DNA of 40,000 nt from Lachnospiraceae bacterium oral taxon 500 (GTDB taxonomy: Bacteria; Bacillota; Clostridia; Lachnospirales; Vallitaleaceae), in assembly GCA_002999035.1 (NCBI GenBank), contig CP027241.1, positions 2,392,195-2,432,194 on the forward strand. Direction: 5' to 3'. This document shows, piece by piece, positions 1 to 7,430 of the stretch. The notes under the pieces were generated by a model. It saw nothing but the letters and a program-made list of their open reading frames with translations, was not told where the DNA came from and ran no database searches. Both the position numbers and the translations under genes were made by a program. Every line of letters starts with the position of its first letter. Position 1 is the stretch's first letter.

Positions 1-1277
1 TGCTCATTCAGATCCGCATATTTTACCTTATATTCGTCTTTAGAAATTATCCCCTCCAAATATATCTCTGTTAGCTTTTCTTTCTTCTGTAAAGCTTTTT
101 GGAGATCTAAAGAGGCAGTTTTCCTTTTAGTATCATCTGTAAGAGCATTCTTGGTTTCTTCTAGCCAAGTTATAATACTCTCTTTAACTACTTCTCTATT
201 GACTACAAGCCCCTCACTTAACTTAGCATAAATTTTTTTAAGCTTAATCCCACTCATAGGATTAGACCCATTACATATTATACTCCCCTTAGAATAAGCC
301 TTTGAACAGTACCAGCTAATATATCCCTTAGAAAATCGTCTCCAATACACTGATCCGCATTTGCCGCAAAATATTTTACCACTAAGTGGATCTGCTCCCA
401 TGTATTTTCCTCTTTTTCCAATTTTTTTACTCTTAAGCCGGTCATTTACCTTTTGCCATCTTTCTTCTGATACATATGCCAATTCTGGCATTGTTATTCT
501 TGTCCAATTTTCCTCTGCGGTTTTAATAACCCGCTTTTTATCAAAATCATGTTTATACCGCCCCATTACTAAGATGCCCTTAGCTTTCTCATTTTTTAGC
601 ACCCTTGAAATGCTTTCTAAGGAAAAAGGTTTACCTACGGAATTGCGATAGCCCATATTATTTAGTATATCCCTTACCTTACGAATACTATCATATTTTT
701 CATATAAATCCCATATAAAAAGTGCCAGTTCTATTTCTTGCGGCACCTTTACCCATCGCTTATTTTCTATTTTATACCCTAAAGCTTTTCCATTACCAAG
801 AGCTGATACCTCAAATCCTTGCTTAGCCATTTCAATTCTGCGTTTATTAGTGTTATTCAATTTTTTACTAAGATTTCTGCTATATTCTTCCGCTATAATT
901 GCCTTAATTCCAGTAATAAGTGCATCTTCATTAGAGCTAAAATACTTATTATCTAAGTACATAAACAGCTTAATATCGTTAGTTACGATTTGATTAACAA
1001 ATAAATACCAATCTAAAGTATTTCTTTGGAGCCTGTCTTGATCTTTGCATACTACAATATCAAATTTATCCTCTGATAAATCTTTTAAAAGCCTTTTATA
1101 TTCATTTCTCCTCTTAGTAGAGGTACCGCTTTTTCCCTCGTCTATGTATTCATCTACAAGTTTCCAGCCATTAGAGGCTATAACATCCTTGTTTTCCTGT
1201 ATCTGCTTTTCGAGGGCGTTAAGTTGCTTTTCTTCATCCGTTGATACTCTTGCGTAATAAACCGCCCGCTGTTTCAT
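1..1277 (-). CDS. Large serine recombinase (phage integrase); C-terminus runs off the left window edge
   Basis: Absent from the ORF track because there is no stop inside the window. Manual minus-strand translation from ATG 1277..1275 gives MKQRAVYYARVSTDEEKQLNALEKQ...GKSGTSTKRRNEYKRLL...VVCKDQDRLQRN, a resolvase-type catalytic domain with the YARVST serine. A recombinase domain, a Cys-rich zinc ribbon (CGKCGSVYWRR..WYCSKAY..CN) and a coiled-coil tail follow. The frame stays open to nt 1. Confidence 0.9.
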   Translation of the reverse strand, partial: MKQRAVYYARVSTDEEKQLNALEKQIQENKDVIASNGWKLVDEYIDEGKSGTSTKRRNEYKRLLKDLSEDKFDIVVCKDQDRLQRNTLDWYLFVNQIVTNDIKLFMYLDNKYFSSNEDALITGIKAIIAEEYSRNLSKKLNNTNKRRIEMAKQGFEVSALGNGKALGYKIENKRWVKVPQEIELALFIWDLYEKYDSIRKVRDILNNMGYRNSVGKPFSLESISRVLKNEKAKGILVMGRYKHDFDKKRVIKTAEENWTRITMPELAYVSEERWQKVNDRLKSKKIGKRGKYMGADPLSGKIFCGKCGSVYWRRFSKGYISWYCSKAYSKGSIICNGSNPMSGIKLKKIYAKLSEGLVVNREVVKESIITWLEETKNALTDDTKRKTASLDLQKALQKKEKLTEIYLEGIISKDEYKVKYADLNE

Positions 1278-1339
1278 ACGTTACGCTCCTTTATTATCCT
1301 GTTTATTATTTTTTACCATAATCTTACATTACTCTGTTT

Positions 1340-1368
1340 ATTATATACTAGTTATATAATATTTACAA
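1340..1368 (-). promoter_or_regulatory. Candidate SigA-type promoter of the integrase gene, containing a 7-5-7 dyad box
   Basis: The minus strand reads TTGTAA-17 nt-TATAAT (-35 at 1368..1363, -10 at 1345..1340). The spacer and -10 contain TTATATA-ACTAG-TATATAA (1341..1359). Confidence 0.45.
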
Positions 1369-1370
1369 CT

Positions 1371-1419
1371 AAAAAAATGAGGGATACTAGCCTATGCCAA
1401 TATCCCCCTCGATTTTTTA
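1371..1419. terminator. Candidate bidirectional intrinsic terminator between the lysis cassette and int
   Basis: AAAAAAA-tGAGGGATA-loop-TATCCCCCTC-gATTTTTT. This is an imperfect GC-containing hairpin flanked by an A-run on one side and a T-run on the other. Confidence 0.5.
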
Positions 1420-1524
1420 TGATAATTTAACTGTTTTCCCCTCGCGGATAAGGTTTTTTTATAATATTATTGGGTATTACACATTCATGCCGCATTGTAG
1501 CAATTTTAGAGAATAGGTTTGCTA

Positions 1525-1890
1525 CTACGAACAAATCTTACCTGTCCCGTCTGTTTTTCCCGCAATATCTTCCTCGTTTACCCATCCATAAACAGTGGAG
1601 CCTTTTCCGACTATAGCTTGCAACTGATATGGATGCGGGTTATTTAGAGAGAAACTTGTTACTTTTGCAAGTCCTGCTTTACATGCTTTAGCTACTCCAC
1701 TTGCATAGGAGTTAGTATACTGGAGGCAACCCATAAACTGGACTACATCTCCTATTTTAAAAGTTTCTCTTGCATTTTTGCCCGGATTAACTGAAATTTC
1801 CGATGTTTCTCCTTCATTAAAATTAATCGCTTTTTCTGTTTTAGCTTTCGTTGTAATTACGCCTTTTTCTCTTAACTGCCTTCCAGTCAT
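1525..1890 (-). CDS. Small lysis-cassette protein, putative SH3-like cell-wall-binding module
   Basis: 121 aa with ATG and an AAGGAGG RBS. The C-terminal half (FKIGDVVQFMG..YTNSYASG..ACKAGLAKVTS..HPYQL..GSTVYGWVNEEDI) resembles wall-binding modules seen at the C-termini of clostridial phage lysins. It is the last gene after the endolysin. Confidence 0.45.
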   Translation of the reverse strand: MTGRQLREKGVITTKAKTEKAINFNEGETSEISVNPGKNARETFKIGDVVQFMGCLQYTNSYASGVAKACKAGLAKVTSFSLNNPHPYQLQAIVGKGSTVYGWVNEEDIAGKTDGTGKICS

Positions 1891-1929
1891 TGTAAACCTC
1901 CTTATTTTTAAGTGCTAATAGCCTTATTC

Positions 1930-2649
1930 CTACTTGTCCATAATAACCACCACCTTATTCTTGCTGTCCCATTCAACAATCTTACCAAATACCTTCTCGG
2001 CCATTTCCCGGATCCCAACGTAATTCTTGTTGTCGATCACCTGTCCGGCCAACTCGTACATCTGGCCATTGTAATTGACTTTGACGACATTCTTTTTAGC
2101 GTCCTCAACCAGCTTGACAATCCCCGCCGTAAACTCCTGCCAGCCATTCGGCCGGGCTAAAATCCTGCGCGGGCAGAATTTACCGCTCCAATCTTGGTGT
2201 TTGTAAATCTTTAGATTAGGATAGGTAAGTAGCAAAGCAGCGTTCAGTTTCTGCGCGTTTGATTCTGCTTTCGCATAATTACCATTTTCGCAAATCTCAA
2301 CGGAGATGGTTTTCCGGTTACCGTCGCCGTTGCCGTCCCCGGCATGATAACAGAACTCGTCAATCGGGACACATTGAATAATGCGGTCGGCGTCAACAAA
2401 AAAATGCACTGACTTGTACTCTTTATCTGCATTTTCCAAACCTTGTAGATACCGGGCATGCGCCTCACTTCCTGCCGTCGGCGCGGTGTTCGCGGTATTA
2501 TGGTTGGTAATACCGATAACCTCTGTCATCTTAACCAGCGTCCGCACGTTCCGCTTGCCCCTTGGCTGCACAATCGCAATATTAACCCGTATGCCGTCAA
2601 TCTCCTTGTCCTGAATGATTCCGTCAATGACGGTTAATGGCTTCAGCAT
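1930..2649 (-). CDS. Endolysin: N-acetylmuramoyl-L-alanine amidase (Amidase_2/PGRP fold) with a copper-amine-oxidase-N-like C-terminal domain
   Basis: Motifs seen: HNTANTA..AHARYL..SVHFFVD..CYHAGDG..GNRKTISVEICEN..YKHQDWSGKFCPRRIL. The C-terminus is VKVNYNGQMYEL..VIDNKNYVGIREMAEKVFGKIVEWD. The likely start is MLKPLTV at 2649, which has an AAGGGGGAGA RBS. The track start at 2694 overlaps the holin. Confidence 0.9.
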   Translation of the reverse strand: MLKPLTVIDGIIQDKEIDGIRVNIAIVQPRGKRNVRTLVKMTEVIGITNHNTANTAPTAGSEAHARYLQGLENADKEYKSVHFFVDADRIIQCVPIDEFCYHAGDGNGDGNRKTISVEICENGNYAKAESNAQKLNAALLLTYPNLKIYKHQDWSGKFCPRRILARPNGWQEFTAGIVKLVEDAKKNVVKVNYNGQMYELAGQVIDNKNYVGIREMAEKVFGKIVEWDSKNKVVVIMDK

Positions 2650-3004
2650 TTTTTGTCTCCCCCTTTGGTTTGCTTGACTGGTTAATTCGGCCATCGTCCA
2701 GCAGGTCTTTTACCAAGTCAAACCACGCCTGAACAACCACCTTTAGTAATTTTACGGAAATAAACGCATTAAACGGTGCCGGAATATTTTCCCTCGCCAA
2801 GGCAACAACATACTCAAACTTCCTTTCGTTGTCGCCGTGTTTAAACCTGTTTTCTGCCGTGATAAATCCTTGATAAACGATTTTTCGGATCCTCTCCAGC
2901 CCCAGCCTTTGCATTTCTTTTACAAAAAGATAGGCTGCAAAGACCAGAACAATGCCTAAAAACGCATACGCAATCATCGGATAATTGGTAAATAATTGAT
3001 TCAT
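2624..3004 (-). CDS. Holin (LL-H-like, single N-terminal TM)
   Basis: 126 aa. It has an N-terminal TM helix (IAYAFLGIVLVFAAYLFV) followed by a charged helical tail. It sits directly upstream of the endolysin start and overlaps it. The RBS is AAGGAGG. Confidence 0.65.
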   Translation of the reverse strand: MNQLFTNYPMIAYAFLGIVLVFAAYLFVKEMQRLGLERIRKIVYQGFITAENRFKHGDNERKFEYVVALARENIPAPFNAFISVKLLKVVVQAWFDLVKDLLDDGRINQSSKPKGETKNAEAINRH

Positions 3005-3015
3005 AAGTAACCTCC

Positions 3016-4266
3016 TTATTCTTTGTACCCTAATGACCTGCTTACCAGCGCCATAACCTCTCCTCTGGTAATCGAATCATTAAAGCGTTTTTCGTGAATA
3101 ACAACTCCTAATTTCTTTAATTCCTCAAAGTACGCCTCCGCCCAGTGCTCACCCTTGGACGGCAATACATCGGTTGTGTCATTCTTATTCAGCACCCGAT
3201 ACAGCAAGGTCATAAACTCGCCGCGCGTAACTTTGTTATCGTAATTCTTTTCAAATACCTTGCAGCCGTGGCTGTTAAGATATTTGAAATACTTGTCAGC
3301 CCAATGTTCAGCGTTTATCACAGGGAACACATTCTTATCTCCGCCCGCCAGCACTCTGGCCAAAATAGCCATTGTTTCACCCCGGCTGATGTTCTGGTCA
3401 AAGTTCCGCTCATGCAGCGTCACACCCTTCTTCCAAAGGAAGTAAAAATATTTGTCCGCCCAATGAAGTAAGCTGTCATCGGCAATCGCGACATATTCCT
3501 TGATCGGGTAATCTTTCCGAATGGTGAAAAAGCCGTTCTTTCCCCAACCTCGGCCGTAAGAATTATGGCCGTACCAAACGGCCTTACTATCGTCCCAGCC
3601 ATAAATTAGCATGGTATGAAAGCCCTTTAAGCTTTCACCGTCTTGCGGGTTGGGAATAATCCCATTGCTCTGGACAAAGCTAAACGATGGATACAAGGGA
3701 ATGCAGATACAGACACACCCAAGCTTTTTAATCGCCTGCTTGATTTCCGCTTCCGTTTCCGGAAAAAGGTATTTGTCAGCTTTGTACCCAGCCGCTGAAC
3801 TTAGCAGCGCTGGACGTACTTCCCCGTAAAACTTATCTTTATTGTCCTTGTAAGAAACCCTGTCGCTTGTCTGCCTTGGGTTTAAGTCATATTGCGATAA
3901 AAAACACACGCCATCCTCGACCAGCTTTTCGGCCTGATCTTTTAGTGATGTTCCTTCCGTGTCCAGCAAGTAGCTAATATTCTTTGGCCGGTTCATCCAT
4001 AAAAACCAGCCGCTGAATAAAAAGACATTGTCCGGGTTCTGAATATACTCCAGCAAAGATTTTGCCTTTGCCAGCGCTTGACCGACGCAGCTGCCGGAAA
4101 GCAGCTGATTATACATAACCATGTTTAATATGGTTTCAATGTTCTCCGGCTTGTAAACCGGTCCCAGTTCTACGCCGCTTTCTGCCAAAACCGGAAAGTC
4201 TTTCGGACTTCGGTTAGACGGAATTGCACCAAATATTTGATTATTTGTGCTGAATGCTTCTTCCAT
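3016..4266 (-). CDS. Papain-like (C1 family) cysteine peptidase fused to three SLH (S-layer homology) repeats
   Basis: The N-terminal domain has the Cys/His/Asn triad in papain order: LSGSCVGQAL, GFHTMLIYGWDD, HNSYGRGWGKNGFFTI. The C-terminus has 3 tandem repeats of about 55 aa of the form HWA(D/E)xYFxxL...G(V/C)xxxE(R/K)xF(D/N)xx(I/V)(S/T)RGExMxLLxRxL, which is SLH-like. Confidence 0.8.
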   Translation of the reverse strand: MEEAFSTNNQIFGAIPSNRSPKDFPVLAESGVELGPVYKPENIETILNMVMYNQLLSGSCVGQALAKAKSLLEYIQNPDNVFLFSGWFLWMNRPKNISYLLDTEGTSLKDQAEKLVEDGVCFLSQYDLNPRQTSDRVSYKDNKDKFYGEVRPALLSSAAGYKADKYLFPETEAEIKQAIKKLGCVCICIPLYPSFSFVQSNGIIPNPQDGESLKGFHTMLIYGWDDSKAVWYGHNSYGRGWGKNGFFTIRKDYPIKEYVAIADDSLLHWADKYFYFLWKKGVTLHERNFDQNISRGETMAILARVLAGGDKNVFPVINAEHWADKYFKYLNSHGCKVFEKNYDNKVTRGEFMTLLYRVLNKNDTTDVLPSKGEHWAEAYFEELKKLGVVIHEKRFNDSITRGEVMALVSRSLGYKE

Positions 4267-4269
4267 GTA

Positions 4270-4698
4270 TCAATCCTCCCTTACTTCCGCCTTATTAATT
4301 TCTGGTTCGTACACCTTGTCCACTAATCCGTTACCGCCATATTCCTTGCGGTAAACATCAAGATTCGCGTGAAAGTTTTCAAGCTGTCGCCGCGTAATGT
4401 ACCCTTGTTTCTTTACCGCGTTGTAACAAACAAATAATTTGTCTCGAAGACTCCCCAGCTTATATTCCCGGTCACGCCGGATATGATCGTCAATCTTTTC
4501 CGCCAGCTTGTCAATACTGGCTTGATTTTCCTTTATCATGGCAAATAGCTCCTCTTTTTCCTGCTGCTTGTCATGATAGTCCGTGACTGCCTTATACACT
4601 CGTTCTATGACCTTATACAGGCCGTAGAACGCACAGCATAGGCCAATTACTTGCTCTATACTAAAACGCCCAAAAATACCAATAATATCTTTCACCAT
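4270..4698 (-). CDS. Membrane-anchored coiled-coil protein, function unknown (possible lysis accessory)
   Basis: 142 aa with an N-terminal hydrophobic helix (VIGLCCAFYGLYKVI) followed by a charged coiled coil. RBS AAAGGTGGTG. It lies between the fibre-associated genes and the peptidase. Confidence 0.5.
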   Translation of the reverse strand: MVKDIIGIFGRFSIEQVIGLCCAFYGLYKVIERVYKAVTDYHDKQQEKEELFAMIKENQASIDKLAEKIDDHIRRDREYKLGSLRDKLFVCYNAVKKQGYITRRQLENFHANLDVYRKEYGGNGLVDKVYEPEINKAEVRED

Positions 4699-4746
4699 TC
4701 ACCACCTTTGATTGGGGCAGCTCTCGCCGCCCCATGTCCTTTGCCC

Positions 4747-4902
4747 TTAGTCGATAGTTTCCGGGATTACTTCCCGAAGAGCCTGTTTCTCAGTCTCCGT
4801 CAACCGAGGATAACTCGCCAGAATTTCTTCTCTGGTGGCCTGCTCGGCTTCCATACGGGCCAGAATCGCACGTTTGAAAATCCTTAATTTGTAGTCTTTC
4901 AT
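4747..4902 (-). CDS. Small ORF (51 aa), unknown; in the XkdX-like position after the tail fibre
   Basis: Not in the track because it is under 60 aa. Manual translation: MKDYKLRIFKRAILARMEAEQATREEILASYPRLTETEKQALREVIPETID. Its start overlaps the upstream stop as ATGA, which suggests translational coupling. Confidence 0.5.
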   Translation of the reverse strand: MKDYKLRIFKRAILARMEAEQATREEILASYPRLTETEKQALREVIPETID

Positions 4903-5168
4903 CTCTGTTCACCTCCTGCTATCAGGTCAGCTAATAATTGGTTGATATCATTAATCGATTGCGCTGTTTTCTCGCTTTCGGTTAACGGTCGTGCTACTTC
5001 TCTCAAAACAATTTTCTTTTCCACATCGTCCCAATACTCAACATAATCTATGCCAGGCTTGGGGTGGTGCGGCGGTATTGGCCGCTCCACTTCGGCCTTG
5101 ATTAGCTCGACCGTGGTCGGCTGATAGCCGATAATTTGCTTGTTGTCGTCAATTAAAAATGCGTACAT
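4899..5168 (-). CDS. Hypothetical protein in the fibre-associated position (XkdW-like position)
   Basis: 89 aa, RBS AGGAGG, immediately downstream of the tail fibre gene. No recognisable motif. Confidence 0.5.
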   Translation of the reverse strand: MYAFLIDDNKQIIGYQPTTVELIKAEVERPIPPHHPKPGIDYVEYWDDVEKKIVLREVARPLTESEKTAQSINDINQLLADLIAGGEQR

Positions 5169-5186
5169 AGTTACCTCCTGTAATTT

Positions 5187-6899
5187 TTACCATGCAATTA
5201 AAGTTCCCCAACCAATATCATATTCTCCCAAATAAGAAAGCATTTTTATACTTCTTACATCTGCAAGATTAAGCATAATCCTATCTGGATTAGATATAAA
5301 ATAAGAGCCATTGTCTCTAAGTAAAGATCGAAAAACCATATGTTTCGATAATTGCTGAAAATTAGTATCGCTAAAAAACCACAGCTGAAATGCGTACCCT
5401 TCATCGGAAGGTCCACCTGATTCTTGGCTATATCTTAATTCCCAAATAAAATTGTTATATTTCTTAGATAACGCTTTTTTAAATTCATATAGTCTATTCC
5501 CATATTGGTCTCGCGTTTCCACAGGGTACACTCCTTCAAAAACGCTATTTAATACATCCGCTTTTTTTATCTTCCCAATATTCCCCGCCATCTCCTGCCA
5601 ACTCGCCGTAGTGCTGGTCGGCACTCCTTTGCCAGTAATGGCGTTGGCAATCGTTGTTTTTCCATTACTGGCTGATTGAAAAAGTTCTTGTAATGTATGA
5701 TCTGATCCATCACTTGCCTTGAAGTAAACTGGCTTTCTGTTATGGTAGTTGAGGAATAATGTACCATCTTGCCCTGGAACATCACCTTCAATGTGACGAG
5801 AGTGAACTTTCTTATCCAAGCCTTTCATGTGAATTCCGTTCCCGTCAACCGAAAATGCATGGTTATCACTCGTTAAAATTTCTTTCCACGGTGCAAAATC
5901 AGTATTTTTAATTGACCGCATGGCGACCTTGTTGTCCCACCACGAATATGCAATCTGAACCCCGAATGTTACTGCATAATTATCCTTATTATACGCATGC
6001 ATAGTGACGATACCATCACCCGTACCTCCTGGACGATTTAGTGTATTTGAATTAAAATAATAACTCATACCATCCTCAATACAGGTATTTAAGTCCAGTA
6101 CCGGTCTATCCCACTTTTCTTTAGAAGTAATTACATTTTCCCATGGTAGCCATGCTGTTCCATTACTCGTTCTAATTTTCATTGACCATGCTTTGTCAAC
6201 TTTATTTTCAAGCCCAGATGGACTACCATCTAATTTATAGGCTACTTGCGTACCATACCCGTCATTATTCTCATGACGAAAATACTGGATATACGCCCAC
6301 GATGTAGGGAGTCCGATTTCTTTGCCTTTATCCGTACTGCATACATAAGGCTCTGGGTAATTGGGATTGTTCAATTCCGCTGCCGTTAATGTCCGTTTAT
6401 TGTTGGTCAGCTTGTTCTCATTGAGCCATTTCCCTTGCGCTGCCGATATTGGCTTGTCCGTGCTGCCGTCTGACAGGCTATTGATAACTTCTACTGGAGA
6501 GGTCATCGCCCGAATAGCTATTTTTTTAACGTCCAAAAAAGTAGCCAGATAATACGCCGGCTCTTTAAAGTGGCTGCCCAGTAAGCCCTCATTTTCCCCG
6601 CTTAGGTTTACAATATTGATGGTGTACCCATTGCTTACACAGTTCTGCAATGCCTGATAAAGCCCGGCGCCGTTCTTATCCCCCTTAGAGCCGAATAGAT
6701 AGTCCTGTCCGACCTTGCCAGTGTTGCCGGTTAAAGTATTGATAAAAGCCTCGTCCGTTGTCGAAATACGAACAGCACTATTATTTTTAAGGTTATTTAA
6801 TTCCTGATCCAGTACATCTGCATTGTAGTTCAAATCCTCAACATTGATAAAGTCTGCCTCATCCGGCTTTCTTAACTTATAAAAATTCGTTTCCTGCAC
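5187..6899 (-). CDS. Tail fibre / receptor-binding protein
   Basis: 570 aa with a GTG start and a GAGGTG RBS. The N-terminus (NFYKLRKPDEADFINVEDLNYNADVLDQELNNLK) is the conserved fibre-attachment motif of PBSX-like and clostridial phages. The gene follows the baseplate genes. Confidence 0.75.
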   Translation of the reverse strand: MQETNFYKLRKPDEADFINVEDLNYNADVLDQELNNLKNNSAVRISTTDEAFINTLTGNTGKVGQDYLFGSKGDKNGAGLYQALQNCVSNGYTINIVNLSGENEGLLGSHFKEPAYYLATFLDVKKIAIRAMTSPVEVINSLSDGSTDKPISAAQGKWLNENKLTNNKRTLTAAELNNPNYPEPYVCSTDKGKEIGLPTSWAYIQYFRHENNDGYGTQVAYKLDGSPSGLENKVDKAWSMKIRTSNGTAWLPWENVITSKEKWDRPVLDLNTCIEDGMSYYFNSNTLNRPGGTGDGIVTMHAYNKDNYAVTFGVQIAYSWWDNKVAMRSIKNTDFAPWKEILTSDNHAFSVDGNGIHMKGLDKKVHSRHIEGDVPGQDGTLFLNYHNRKPVYFKASDGSDHTLQELFQSASNGKTTIANAITGKGVPTSTTASWQEMAGNIGKIKKADVLNSVFEGVYPVETRDQYGNRLYEFKKALSKKYNNFIWELRYSQESGGPSDEGYAFQLWFFSDTNFQQLSKHMVFRSLLRDNGSYFISNPDRIMLNLADVRSIKMLSYLGEYDIGWGTLIAW

Positions 6900-7430
6900 T
6901 TATAACACCTCATTTCTTAACTGTCCCCAAGTTTTGCCTTTAACCTCTCCCCATTTCAAAAGCTTGATATTCCCCCACTGGTTATAAAGCAGCGATACCG
7001 TAAACATCATAATGGCCGGGAGCATCCGCTCTAAAAGCTGCCTTACTTCATTCACTTTATTTTTTTCTGTTAATGCTACTTTAACAGTCAAGGATAATCC
7101 CTGTAATTCGGTCTTAACCCCGTCTACACCTAATAGAGCTGTCAAACTTTCATTAAGTGTGTTTTTTCTAATATTCCAGCGTAAATACACTCTAAATCTT
7201 CTGTTCTCTAAAGTATCATTTTCCTCTGGAAATATGCCTAATAAAGATTCAAAATAAGCTACCCCATCTTCGTCTGCTGTTTCGATGAACATGTTTCTTA
7301 AGAATTTATCAATCGCCTCAAGAATAAGTTTGATCTCCGGAGTTTCTGCCTTTGCAATTTCCTTGAATTCTTTGATTTCTCTGATATGAAAAGGTAAATA
7401 GCTTAATAGCTCCACTTCTTTAGCCGACAT
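6900..7430 (-). CDS. Baseplate protein, XkdU/YmfQ-like (DUF2313)
   Basis: 176 aa. YLPFHIREIKEFKEIAKAETPEI...FIETADEDGVAYFESLLGI is typical of this family. Position is between baseplate J and the fibre. Confidence 0.75.
   Translation of the reverse strand: MSAKEVELLSYLPFHIREIKEFKEIAKAETPEIKLILEAIDKFLRNMFIETADEDGVAYFESLLGIFPEENDTLENRRFRVYLRWNIRKNTLNESLTALLGVDGVKTELQGLSLTVKVALTEKNKVNEVRQLLERMLPAIMMFTVSLLYNQWGNIKLLKWGEVKGKTWGQLRNEVL

Follow-up and report, generated by a model that had tools for sequence, protein, structure and literature searches.

What does a papain-like cysteine peptidase joined to S-layer homology (SLH) repeats do inside a phage lysis cassette? The question is posed by a single gene, here termed C1-SLH, in a 40,000-nucleotide stretch of the genome of Lachnospiraceae bacterium oral taxon 500 (assembly GCA_002999035.1, contig CP027241.1, positions 2,392,195 to 2,432,194; this whole stretch, numbered from its first letter, is referred to as the window). 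The window holds a temperate myovirus, with terminase, portal, sheath, tape measure and baseplate genes, and every gene lies on the minus strand. The answer we tentatively favour, as a fully credible reading rather than a probable one, is that C1-SLH encodes a second, modular, holin-dependent lysin, in which a C1 module held by an SLH pseudo-trimer anchor would cut peptide bonds in the wall.

This reading is favoured because C1-SLH lies within the lysis cassette, where Shine-Dalgarno sequences overlap the stop codons of neighbouring genes and a strong terminator is found only after the cassette; because the relatives examined all lie within or next to lysis modules, with changing partners; because two independent cassettes, at loci L002-L005 and L024, place a C1 protein next to the holin and show no other hydrolase there; and because both C1 domains and the short-loop type of SLH repeat described below shuffle with lysin modules. 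It is further favoured because the protein has neither a signal peptide nor a transmembrane (TM) segment, as in canonical holin-dependent endolysins, because papain-superfamily cysteine peptidases, in the form of CHAP, LysA N4/N5 and PeiW/PeiP, are already phage lysin domains, and because SLH has been shown experimentally to be an endolysin binding domain in LysBT1 (PMC12285257), a role confirmed by a 2026 preprint on Paenibacillus lysins.

Architecture of the C1-SLH protein

The open reading frame (ORF) of C1-SLH has boundaries at exactly 3016..4266 on the minus strand, running from an ATG start to a stop codon at 3016..3018, and its translation is 416 amino acids long (47.5 kDa). Its Shine-Dalgarno sequence, read as GGGAGGA (4274..4280, minus), lies within the final codons of the upstream gene, the TGA of which (4272..4270) leaves a 3-nt spacer to the C1-SLH ATG, and the TAA of C1-SLH in turn overlaps an AAGGAGG serving the next gene. 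The close homologs, which fall into eight clusters, all metagenomic, are 58-95% identical to the C1-SLH protein and equal to it in length and architecture. NCBIfam holds no curated name for the protein or for its small neighbours, and its match in PHROGs is phrog_16701, 'peptidase'.

Residues 1-262 (3481..4266, minus) constitute a Peptidase_C1 domain, as judged from Pfam, alignment to xylellain and Foldseek. Pfam family PF00112 scores 36.7 bits, above its cutoff of 20.7 (E=6.4e-9), with the alignment confined to residues 163-253, and xylellain (3OIS) is the best solved structure by sequence in a phmmer search (E=1e-8, residues 12-263), followed among the PDB sequence matches by cathepsins B, L, K and S. 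The oxyanion-hole glutamine (Gln54, codon 4105..4107), the catalytic nucleophile in its SGSC motif (Cys60, 4087..4089, matched with the region around the catalytic Cys in 3OIS), the catalytic histidine in GFHTM (His217, 3616..3618) and the orienting catalytic asparagine in HNSYGxxWG (Asn235, 3562..3564), all encoded on the minus strand, occur in canonical order and motifs, with Gln54 six residues ahead of the Cys. All four are invariant in alignments A1, A4 and A5, across nine close homologs (58-95% identity) and two sets of 11 divergent ones (down to 21-30%). The full-length AlphaFold model has a mean pLDDT of 63.7, falling below 50 at residues 80-141, and when it is searched with Foldseek only ~90 columns align to xylellain and cathepsin B. 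Membership of family C1 is strongly indicated by the sequence; structural support extends to no more than a part of the domain.

An inhibitory N-terminal propeptide is typical of C1A zymogens, if not universal among them. The C1-SLH protein appears to have no such propeptide of the I29 type, because it starts only 13 residues before an IPSxxxxxD motif that, by our own reading, would correspond to the mature N-terminus of papain-like enzymes. A hydropathy scan likewise found no signal peptide or TM segment, as no 19-residue window of the protein reaches a Kyte-Doolittle (KD) value of 1.6; the maximum, 1.44, is in the core of the domain.

The remainder of the protein consists of three SLH-like repeats on the minus strand: residues 263-312 (3331..3480, HWADKYF...ISRGETMAILARVL), 313-365 (3172..3330, HWADKYF...VTRGEFMTLLYRVL) and 366-416 (3019..3171, HWAEAYF...ITRGEVMALVSRSL). 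The 53-aa units, with HWA at residues 268, 321 and 374, are 40-48% identical in pairwise comparison, and the best self-match over 42 residues is 20, against a maximum of 11 among 300 shuffles. Pfam SLH (PF00395) falls below threshold on them (13.6 vs 20.8 bits, E=0.065, without a separate domain call), as do DUF6471 and the pseudomurein-binding repeat PMBR, two candidates for the repeat region that were dropped once the SLH fold had been established. A profile of the repeat region built from nine homologs recovers only SLH trimers among PDB sequences, namely Paenibacillus alvei SpaA (E~3e-3), then 8BZ2 and SbsB. The same profile yielded 1429 matches at E<=1e-3 among 1.84 billion representatives, with Pfam SLH present in 66 of the 104 best matches scanned. 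Modelled alone, residues 263-416 reach a pLDDT of 87.2 and a pTM of 0.84, and all 15 significant Foldseek matches of this model in the PDB are to Sap or SpaA SLH trimers (TM-score 0.63-0.71), after which there is only noise.

The ligand motifs of SLH domains, taken as the Trp, GIIxG and TRAE set given for Sap, SpaA and LysBT1 in PMC12285257, are partly retained. The conserved Trp is present in all three repeats, and TRAE appears as SRGE, TRGE and TRGE, with invariant Arg and Glu; homologs P0005 and P0007 have the literal TRAE. The GIIxG region is four residues shorter than in canonical SLH, and its second Gly is gone. On the evidence of sequence and model together, the repeat module is a divergent, short-loop form of the SLH pseudo-trimer, and its ligand is presumed to be a pyruvylated wall polymer.

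An initial annotation of this locus had described an ORF at 3016-4266, without stating its strand, that fused a C1-type catalytic domain with the motifs SGSCVGQ, FHTMLIYGW and HNSYGRGWGKNGFF to three SLH-like repeats. The ORF is real, and lies on the minus strand; the motifs are all found, at residues 57-63, 216-224 and 234-247 respectively. The C1 assignment stands on the Pfam score above cutoff, the 3OIS match and the invariant Gln, Cys, His and Asn, and the fold search finds xylellain and cathepsin B over no more than the ~90 aligned columns. The threefold repetition is borne out by the self-match relative to shuffles, and the SLH nature of the repeats by the SLH-only profile matches and the SLH-trimer fold of the model.

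The lysis cassette and its relatives

In order of transcription, the tail-fibre gene (5187-6899) is followed by p89, p51, p142, C1-SLH, a gene for a 126-aa TM protein, the amidase gene, p121, a terminator and the integrase promoter. C1-SLH shares its orientation with the tail-fibre accessory genes, the putative holin and the Amidase_2 endolysin, and is packed tightly against its immediate neighbours. A terminator-like hairpin of the intrinsic type (1379..1408, minus), with a 13-bp stem and a T-run, closes the late/lysis operon and is the sole strong site of its kind within 1200-7000. Promoter-like and terminator-like counts over the same interval are at chance level, and the scan of this interval found no convincing promoter or terminator that would isolate C1-SLH.

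The partners of C1 genes in homologous cassettes differ widely, the holins being of the Dp-1, r1t, phrog_297 or Phage_holin_1 type, and the endolysins being Amidase_2, Amidase_3, GH25, M15 or unclassified. An r1t-type holin and an Amidase_2 accompany C1 proteins 58-80% identical to that of the window at L006, L019/L020, L021/L022 and L023. At L008-L010 (88-92%), the neighbours are a DUF6275 protein, an Amidase_3 + Cu_amine_oxidN1 endolysin and a phrog_297 holin, without p142. More distantly, the C1 gene of L011 (26%) is followed by small proteins with hydrophobic segments and then a member of an endolysin PHROG; the small phage L017 (42%) encodes a C1 domain with one repeat, followed by a Peptidase_M15_3; and the cultured phage THSA-485A (26%) has a GH25 + PG_binding_1 endolysin, then a C1 peptidase without a binding module, then a holin.

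Two of these arrangements have further features of their own. At L010 (9194-9445) and L008 (9264-9515), the 83-aa DUF6275/phrog_918 protein, which has no TM segment, is encoded between C1-SLH and the Amidase_3 endolysin, with the holin after the endolysin. At L008 (6349-7347) and L009 (IMG/VR UViG_2802429442), a 332-aa ORF, possibly a tyrosine recombinase on our own reading of its sequence, and two small genes precede C1-SLH in place of the tail-fibre accessory genes. The L017 contig (IMG/VR UViG_3300033146_003254) is 15.5 kb long, and on it the C1 gene with its single SLH-like repeat directly precedes a Peptidase_M15_3 devoid of a binding domain; its polymerase is, as we read it, a protein-primed family-B DNA polymerase.

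C1 proteins are the sole hydrolases beside a holin in two independent settings. At L002-L005, a C1 protein 73% identical to that of the window is followed by a Dp-1 holin, then by a methylase gene (matching the last 41 profile positions only), a Res-type helicase and a relaxase, with no amidase. At L024, a 98.7-kb viral contig, a C1 + Cu_amine_oxidN1 protein, 37% identical to P0226 and not aligned to that of the window, is followed by a Phage_holin_1, with no other hydrolase within ~3.5 kb of the C1 gene; we read the long unannotated ORFs before it as tail fibres. Separately, the interval 9480-14656 of L002, directly behind the Dp-1 holin, holds no more of an N6/N4 DNA methylase than its C-terminal 175 aa, and then the Res-type helicase and the relaxase. 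Because the methylase gene is truncated, this suggests that the prophage of L002-L005 ends right after the holin, and it also suggests insertion of the L002 prophage into, or a position next to, a restriction-modification locus carried by a mobile element.

The wider C1 clade extends this pattern of exchange. One word-limited search, seeded with the THSA-485A peptidase, gave 188 clusters at E<=1e-8, most of them stand-alone proteins of ~265-300 aa, some with source names from Chitinophagales, Acidobacteriota and Saccharibacteria bins. Fusions to lytic modules comprise C1+Amidase_2 (two), C1+glucosaminidase+SLH (one) and C1+M23 (one), and combinations with binding modules C1+Cu_amine_oxidN1 (seven), C1+SPOR (four) and C1+SLH (three). 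Domain order was verified on representatives of the fusions, across which the Gln, Cys, His and Asn are invariant. The short-loop SLH repeat is similarly mobile: a single copy of the repeat 3 type ends the Amidase_2 protein P0009, next to XhlA, and such repeats also end two Amidase_3 proteins, P0010, for which Pfam confirms the domain, and P0012, judged by eye, as well as P0022, which looks GH25-like by eye. Among the 104 repeat-profile matches scanned, the fused domains include Amidase_3 (14), Amidase_2 (10), C1 (5), glucosaminidase (4), Peptidase_S8 (4), GH25 (2) and M15/VanY (2+2). As an observation apart, P0226, P0238 and P0264, which are C1+Amidase_2 and C1+M23 fusions, share a C-terminal segment of ~80 aa (YGGxDxxAAxxLA ... 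SGxDR[FY]AT) that resembles the CWB2 repeat of Clostridioides difficile Cwp proteins, with no Pfam detection at E<0.001.

When the C1-SLH alignment or the tail sheath served as query against species-representative genomes, no relative turned up, and scans of viral contigs with P0035, P0013 and P0238 gave no matches. The scan with P0249 recovered mostly SPOR rather than C1 domains and was not used, and a metagenome scan gave one noisy, frameshifted locus (L018), which was set aside. The nearest cultured phages to the window are Clostridium phages, at only 31% portal identity, a value uninformative as to the host. L008 and L009 are IMG/VR prophages of one genome, with C1-SLH copies 92% identical to that of the window, and the window is most likely a third prophage of that genome, which would give the host three copies of C1-SLH.

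The immediate neighbours of C1-SLH, all on the minus strand, are characterised to differing degrees. The small genes p89 and p51, after the tail fibre (4747..5168), have tblastn matches of 69-98% identity in L002-L005 and L010, and are syntenic with the cassette. The upstream partner p142 (4270..4698; 142 aa; phrog_4257, of unknown function) has an N-terminal hydrophobic segment that is weak (KD 1.55), and is of coiled-coil character on our own reading of its sequence. It also stands upstream of C1-SLH in L002-L005 and L006, at 43-63% identity (L002 7434-7862; L006 2278-2739); its position is held by a 140-aa gene in L020 and by a 67-aa gene in L021/L022, and it is absent from L008-L010. The protein could be a lysis regulator. 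The idea of an i-spanin-like p142 in a diderm Firmicute host was rejected as unsupported at a KD of 1.55, no search having been made for a lipoprotein partner.

Downstream, the putative holin (2624..3004; 126 aa; phrog_15303, of unknown function) has one strong N-terminal TM segment at residues 10-28 (KD19 = 2.50). The canonical endolysin (1930..2694) joins an Amidase_2 domain (Pfam E=7e-16) to a C-terminal binding domain of the Cu_amine_oxidN1 type, and 12 of its 13 PHROG matches are annotated as endolysin or amidase. Taken from its first ATG, the amidase ORF overlaps that of the putative holin (2624-3004) by 71 nt; the true start is probably 13-15 codons downstream, because its cluster mates are 239-241 aa long. 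The last gene of the operon, p121 (1525..1890), matches the endolysin PHROG phrog_20388 over positions 437-524 of 527 only (E=7e-12), and may be a stand-alone wall-binding-domain protein. The gene order of the initial annotation, with C1-SLH directly upstream of the TM protein and the Amidase_2 endolysin and downstream of the 142-aa protein, is confirmed; of its labels, that of the Amidase_2 endolysin is sound, 'holin' derives from one TM segment and position, and the description of p142 as a TM/coiled-coil protein reduces to a weakly hydrophobic N-terminus and a coiled coil seen by eye.

Beyond the operon, a large serine recombinase begins at 1278 on the minus strand (N-terminus MKQRAVYYARVST...) and continues past the left edge of the window; it has a promoter-like site at 1368..1340 (10/12 matches), and is separated from the lysis operon by the hairpin at 1408..1379. 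In the head module (20018-23470, minus), the C-terminal part of a 706-aa minor head/head-morphogenesis protein resembles ADP-ribosyltransferase toxins (phrog_16625 and phrog_3895, residues ~428-688), and the next large ORF, of 347 aa, matches the ADP-ribosylglycohydrolase PHROG phrog_6572. These could be a toxin and reversal-enzyme pair.

Candidate substrates and modes of action

As a holin-dependent lysin, the C1-SLH protein would accumulate in the cytoplasm late in infection, and would reach the wall only once the holin had opened the membrane. There the SLH trimer would dock it on a wall polymer, most likely the pyruvylated secondary cell-wall polysaccharide, and the C1 peptidase would cut peptide bonds in the wall, most likely those of peptidoglycan stem or cross-bridge peptides, thereby complementing the amidase much as CHAP or NlpC/P60 modules do in endolysins with two activities. 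Across such varied hosts, peptidoglycan peptides are the substrate we favour as the most economical.

Each part of this arrangement has a counterpart in known systems. Endolysins of the CHAP/C51, NlpC/P60 and LysA N4/N5 types are, like C1-SLH, encoded next to a holin, lack a signal peptide and pair a catalytic with a binding domain; as in the C1 clade, their papain-superfamily Cys/His chemistry may be found on its own, with an amidase alongside it or in fusion with an amidase. Unlike theirs, the catalytic domain of C1-SLH belongs to family C1 (PF00112), whose activity on peptidoglycan is hypothetical. LysBT1, from a Brevibacillus thermoruber prophage, and the Paenibacillus thiaminolyticus endolysins have a C-terminal SLH wall anchor, as C1-SLH does, with the conserved Trp and the Arg and Glu of TRAE in common. 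However, each of these lysins combines amidase-type domains with a single canonical SLH that presumably homotrimerises, whereas C1-SLH has a C1 catalytic domain and three tandem short-loop repeats, forming a pseudo-trimer in one chain, from which GIIxG has been lost. PeiW and PeiP, from methanogen prophages, are likewise lytic enzymes that join a cysteine-protease domain to tandem wall-binding repeats, but they differ in protease family, in the N-terminal position of their PMB repeats and in their archaeal pseudomurein substrate. The closest solved structure, xylellain of Xylella fastidiosa, has no wall-binding module and no assigned lysis role. The same is true of the closest protein in a cultured phage, the THSA-485A 'peptidase C1A papain' Tsac_2838 (phrog_16701; 26% identity), which is encoded between a GH25 endolysin and a holin, and is placed by PHROGs in the category 'other: peptidase'.

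Several observations weigh against a peptidoglycan-cutting lysin. C1 peptidases normally act on proteins made of L-amino acids, we know of no C1-family enzyme that cuts peptidoglycan, and our search of the literature found neither such an enzyme nor a description of a C1-family endolysin. The GIIxG ligand motif is lost from the repeats, making the wall ligand uncertain; the model of the catalytic domain is poor, with the pLDDT below 50 over residues 80-141; and the 'holin' of the window matches no holin family, its label reflecting position and topology. The cassettes with C1 as sole lysin are on incomplete contigs: L002 may be a prophage in decay, and the 98.7-kb L024 phage has room for an endolysin gene outside the cassette. 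Moreover, ~9/11 cassette types pair the C1 gene with a peptidoglycan hydrolase that is complete and separate from it, a pattern that a different, non-redundant substrate would fit equally well.

Such a substrate is what a dedicated envelope-protein protease would have, an alternative that we consider doubtful but worth serious attention. Released together with the amidase, C1-SLH would dock through its SLH trimer on the very polymer that holds SLH-anchored proteins, and would clip those proteins as a third step of lysis; with lattice pores too small for virions, clipping would stop the S-layer from holding the lysed cell together, in parallel with spanins and the mycobacteriophage LysB. The presence of a complete hydrolase of variable class beside C1 in most cassettes suggests just such a complementary substrate, and the two enzymes of the window carry different binding modules, three SLH repeats vs Cu_amine_oxidN1. 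S-layers also block access from outside to SLH ligands and peptidoglycan, and the THSA-485A host is a Thermoanaerobacterium, presumably one of a genus with SLH-anchored S-layers. The nearest functional precedent is Cwp84 of C. difficile, a C1A peptidase with wall-binding CWB2 repeats that cleaves the S-layer precursor SlpA (PMC5842191). Cwp84 and Cwp13 resemble C1-SLH in joining a C1A peptidase to repeats that bind wall polysaccharide; however, Cwp84 is produced and secreted by the host bacterium and has both a propeptide and CWB2 repeats, whereas C1-SLH is phage-encoded, has SLH repeats and lacks both leader and propeptide. Nor is Cwp84 a close relative in sequence or fold, being absent among the 60 PDB sequence matches and 50 fold matches listed. 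The C1 clade is, furthermore, fused to SPOR, Cu_amine_oxidN1, Amidase_2 and M23, two cassettes have no other lysin, and stand-alone members from Chitinophagales, Acidobacteriota and Saccharibacteria bins mean that an S-layer-specific role cannot be general. The stricter proposal that C1-SLH itself is a phage 'S-layer breaker' and no peptidoglycan hydrolase, docking on the polymer and releasing the SLH-anchored lattice by proteolysis, we regard as rather unlikely.

Two further alternatives lead away from the wall of the lysing cell. C1 peptidases cut proteins, and without a propeptide the enzyme could show activity while still in the cytoplasm, where it might process or activate p142, with which it is frequently paired and which is conserved, or the holin or amidase, or might degrade cytoplasmic or membrane proteins late in infection, leaving the repeats as an oligomerisation or localisation module only. 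This is improbable: the fusions of C1, both to four kinds of wall-binding module and to enzymes that hydrolyse peptidoglycan, indicate that it acts at the wall, p142 is missing from several cassettes, and the interchange of holins and endolysins across families leaves no fixed substrate for processing. Still harder to credit is a lysogenic-conversion or 'moron' protease benefiting the oral host, for instance in nutrient acquisition or the degradation of host tissue or competitors, or a free depolymerase that after release acts on neighbouring cells and eases the next round of infection. The host is an oral human bacterium, most likely with three copies of the gene, and an SLH anchor would keep the enzyme on cell surfaces; the authors describing phage XacN1 also mentioned a C1 peptidase, in passing, among 'potential lytic enzymes' or candidate biofilm enzymes. 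Yet a signal peptide is missing from the protein; the gene forms part of a late operon with conserved holin synteny, in which, at chance-level site counts, no promoter or terminator convincingly belongs to it alone; and SLH ligands are reportedly occluded from outside by the S-layer. A virion-associated depolymerase was rejected, as the protein has no structural domain and its gene lies past the tail-fibre accessory genes, within the block of holin and endolysin genes.

Among the three readings offered by the initial annotation, the second endolysin is therefore the best supported, through the clade fusions, the shared SLH repeats and the two sole-lysin cassettes. Its S-layer-degrading factor retains the analogy with Cwp84 and is weakened by the stand-alone members from Chitinophagales, Acidobacteriota and Saccharibacteria bins. 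Its idea of an enzyme that clears the S-layer before the amidase acts has no evident route, since a protein without a signal peptide should arrive at the wall together with the amidase. Its remark that C1 is not among the standard catalytic domains of endolysins agrees with the available portions of a review of cell-wall hydrolases (PMC6403190) and of the PhaLP paper, which contain no entry for C1 or papain among catalytic domains.

Implications for phage lysis

We favour C1-SLH as a modular lysin that combines a catalytic family unlisted in the catalogues searched with a divergent SLH anchor. Endolysin catalogues and enzybiotic pipelines rely on a fixed list of catalytic domains, and C1 is missing from those checked, as far as their available portions extend. 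The phage C1 peptidases appear to be a sizeable, modular and almost unannotated group (188 clusters in the one word-limited search) in the endolysin slot, which databases label 'hypothetical protein', 'C1 family peptidase' or, in PHROGs, 'other: peptidase'. Likewise, the short-loop SLH variant, which falls below the Pfam threshold, widens the range of SLH-anchored lysins, first reported in 2025 and with SLH counted in only two entries by PhaLP. The oral Lachnospiraceae host, most likely with three prophage copies of the gene, offers a tractable test system. If C1 peptidases cut envelope proteins, they would constitute an unrecognised extra step in the lysis of Gram-positive bacteria by phages; were C1-SLH in particular to release the S-layer, this would be a third step of lysis in S-layered Firmicutes, analogous to the spanins of Gram-negative hosts and to LysB in mycobacteria. 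If instead they cleave peptidoglycan, they would represent a new catalytic class of lysin, possibly with a new bond specificity.

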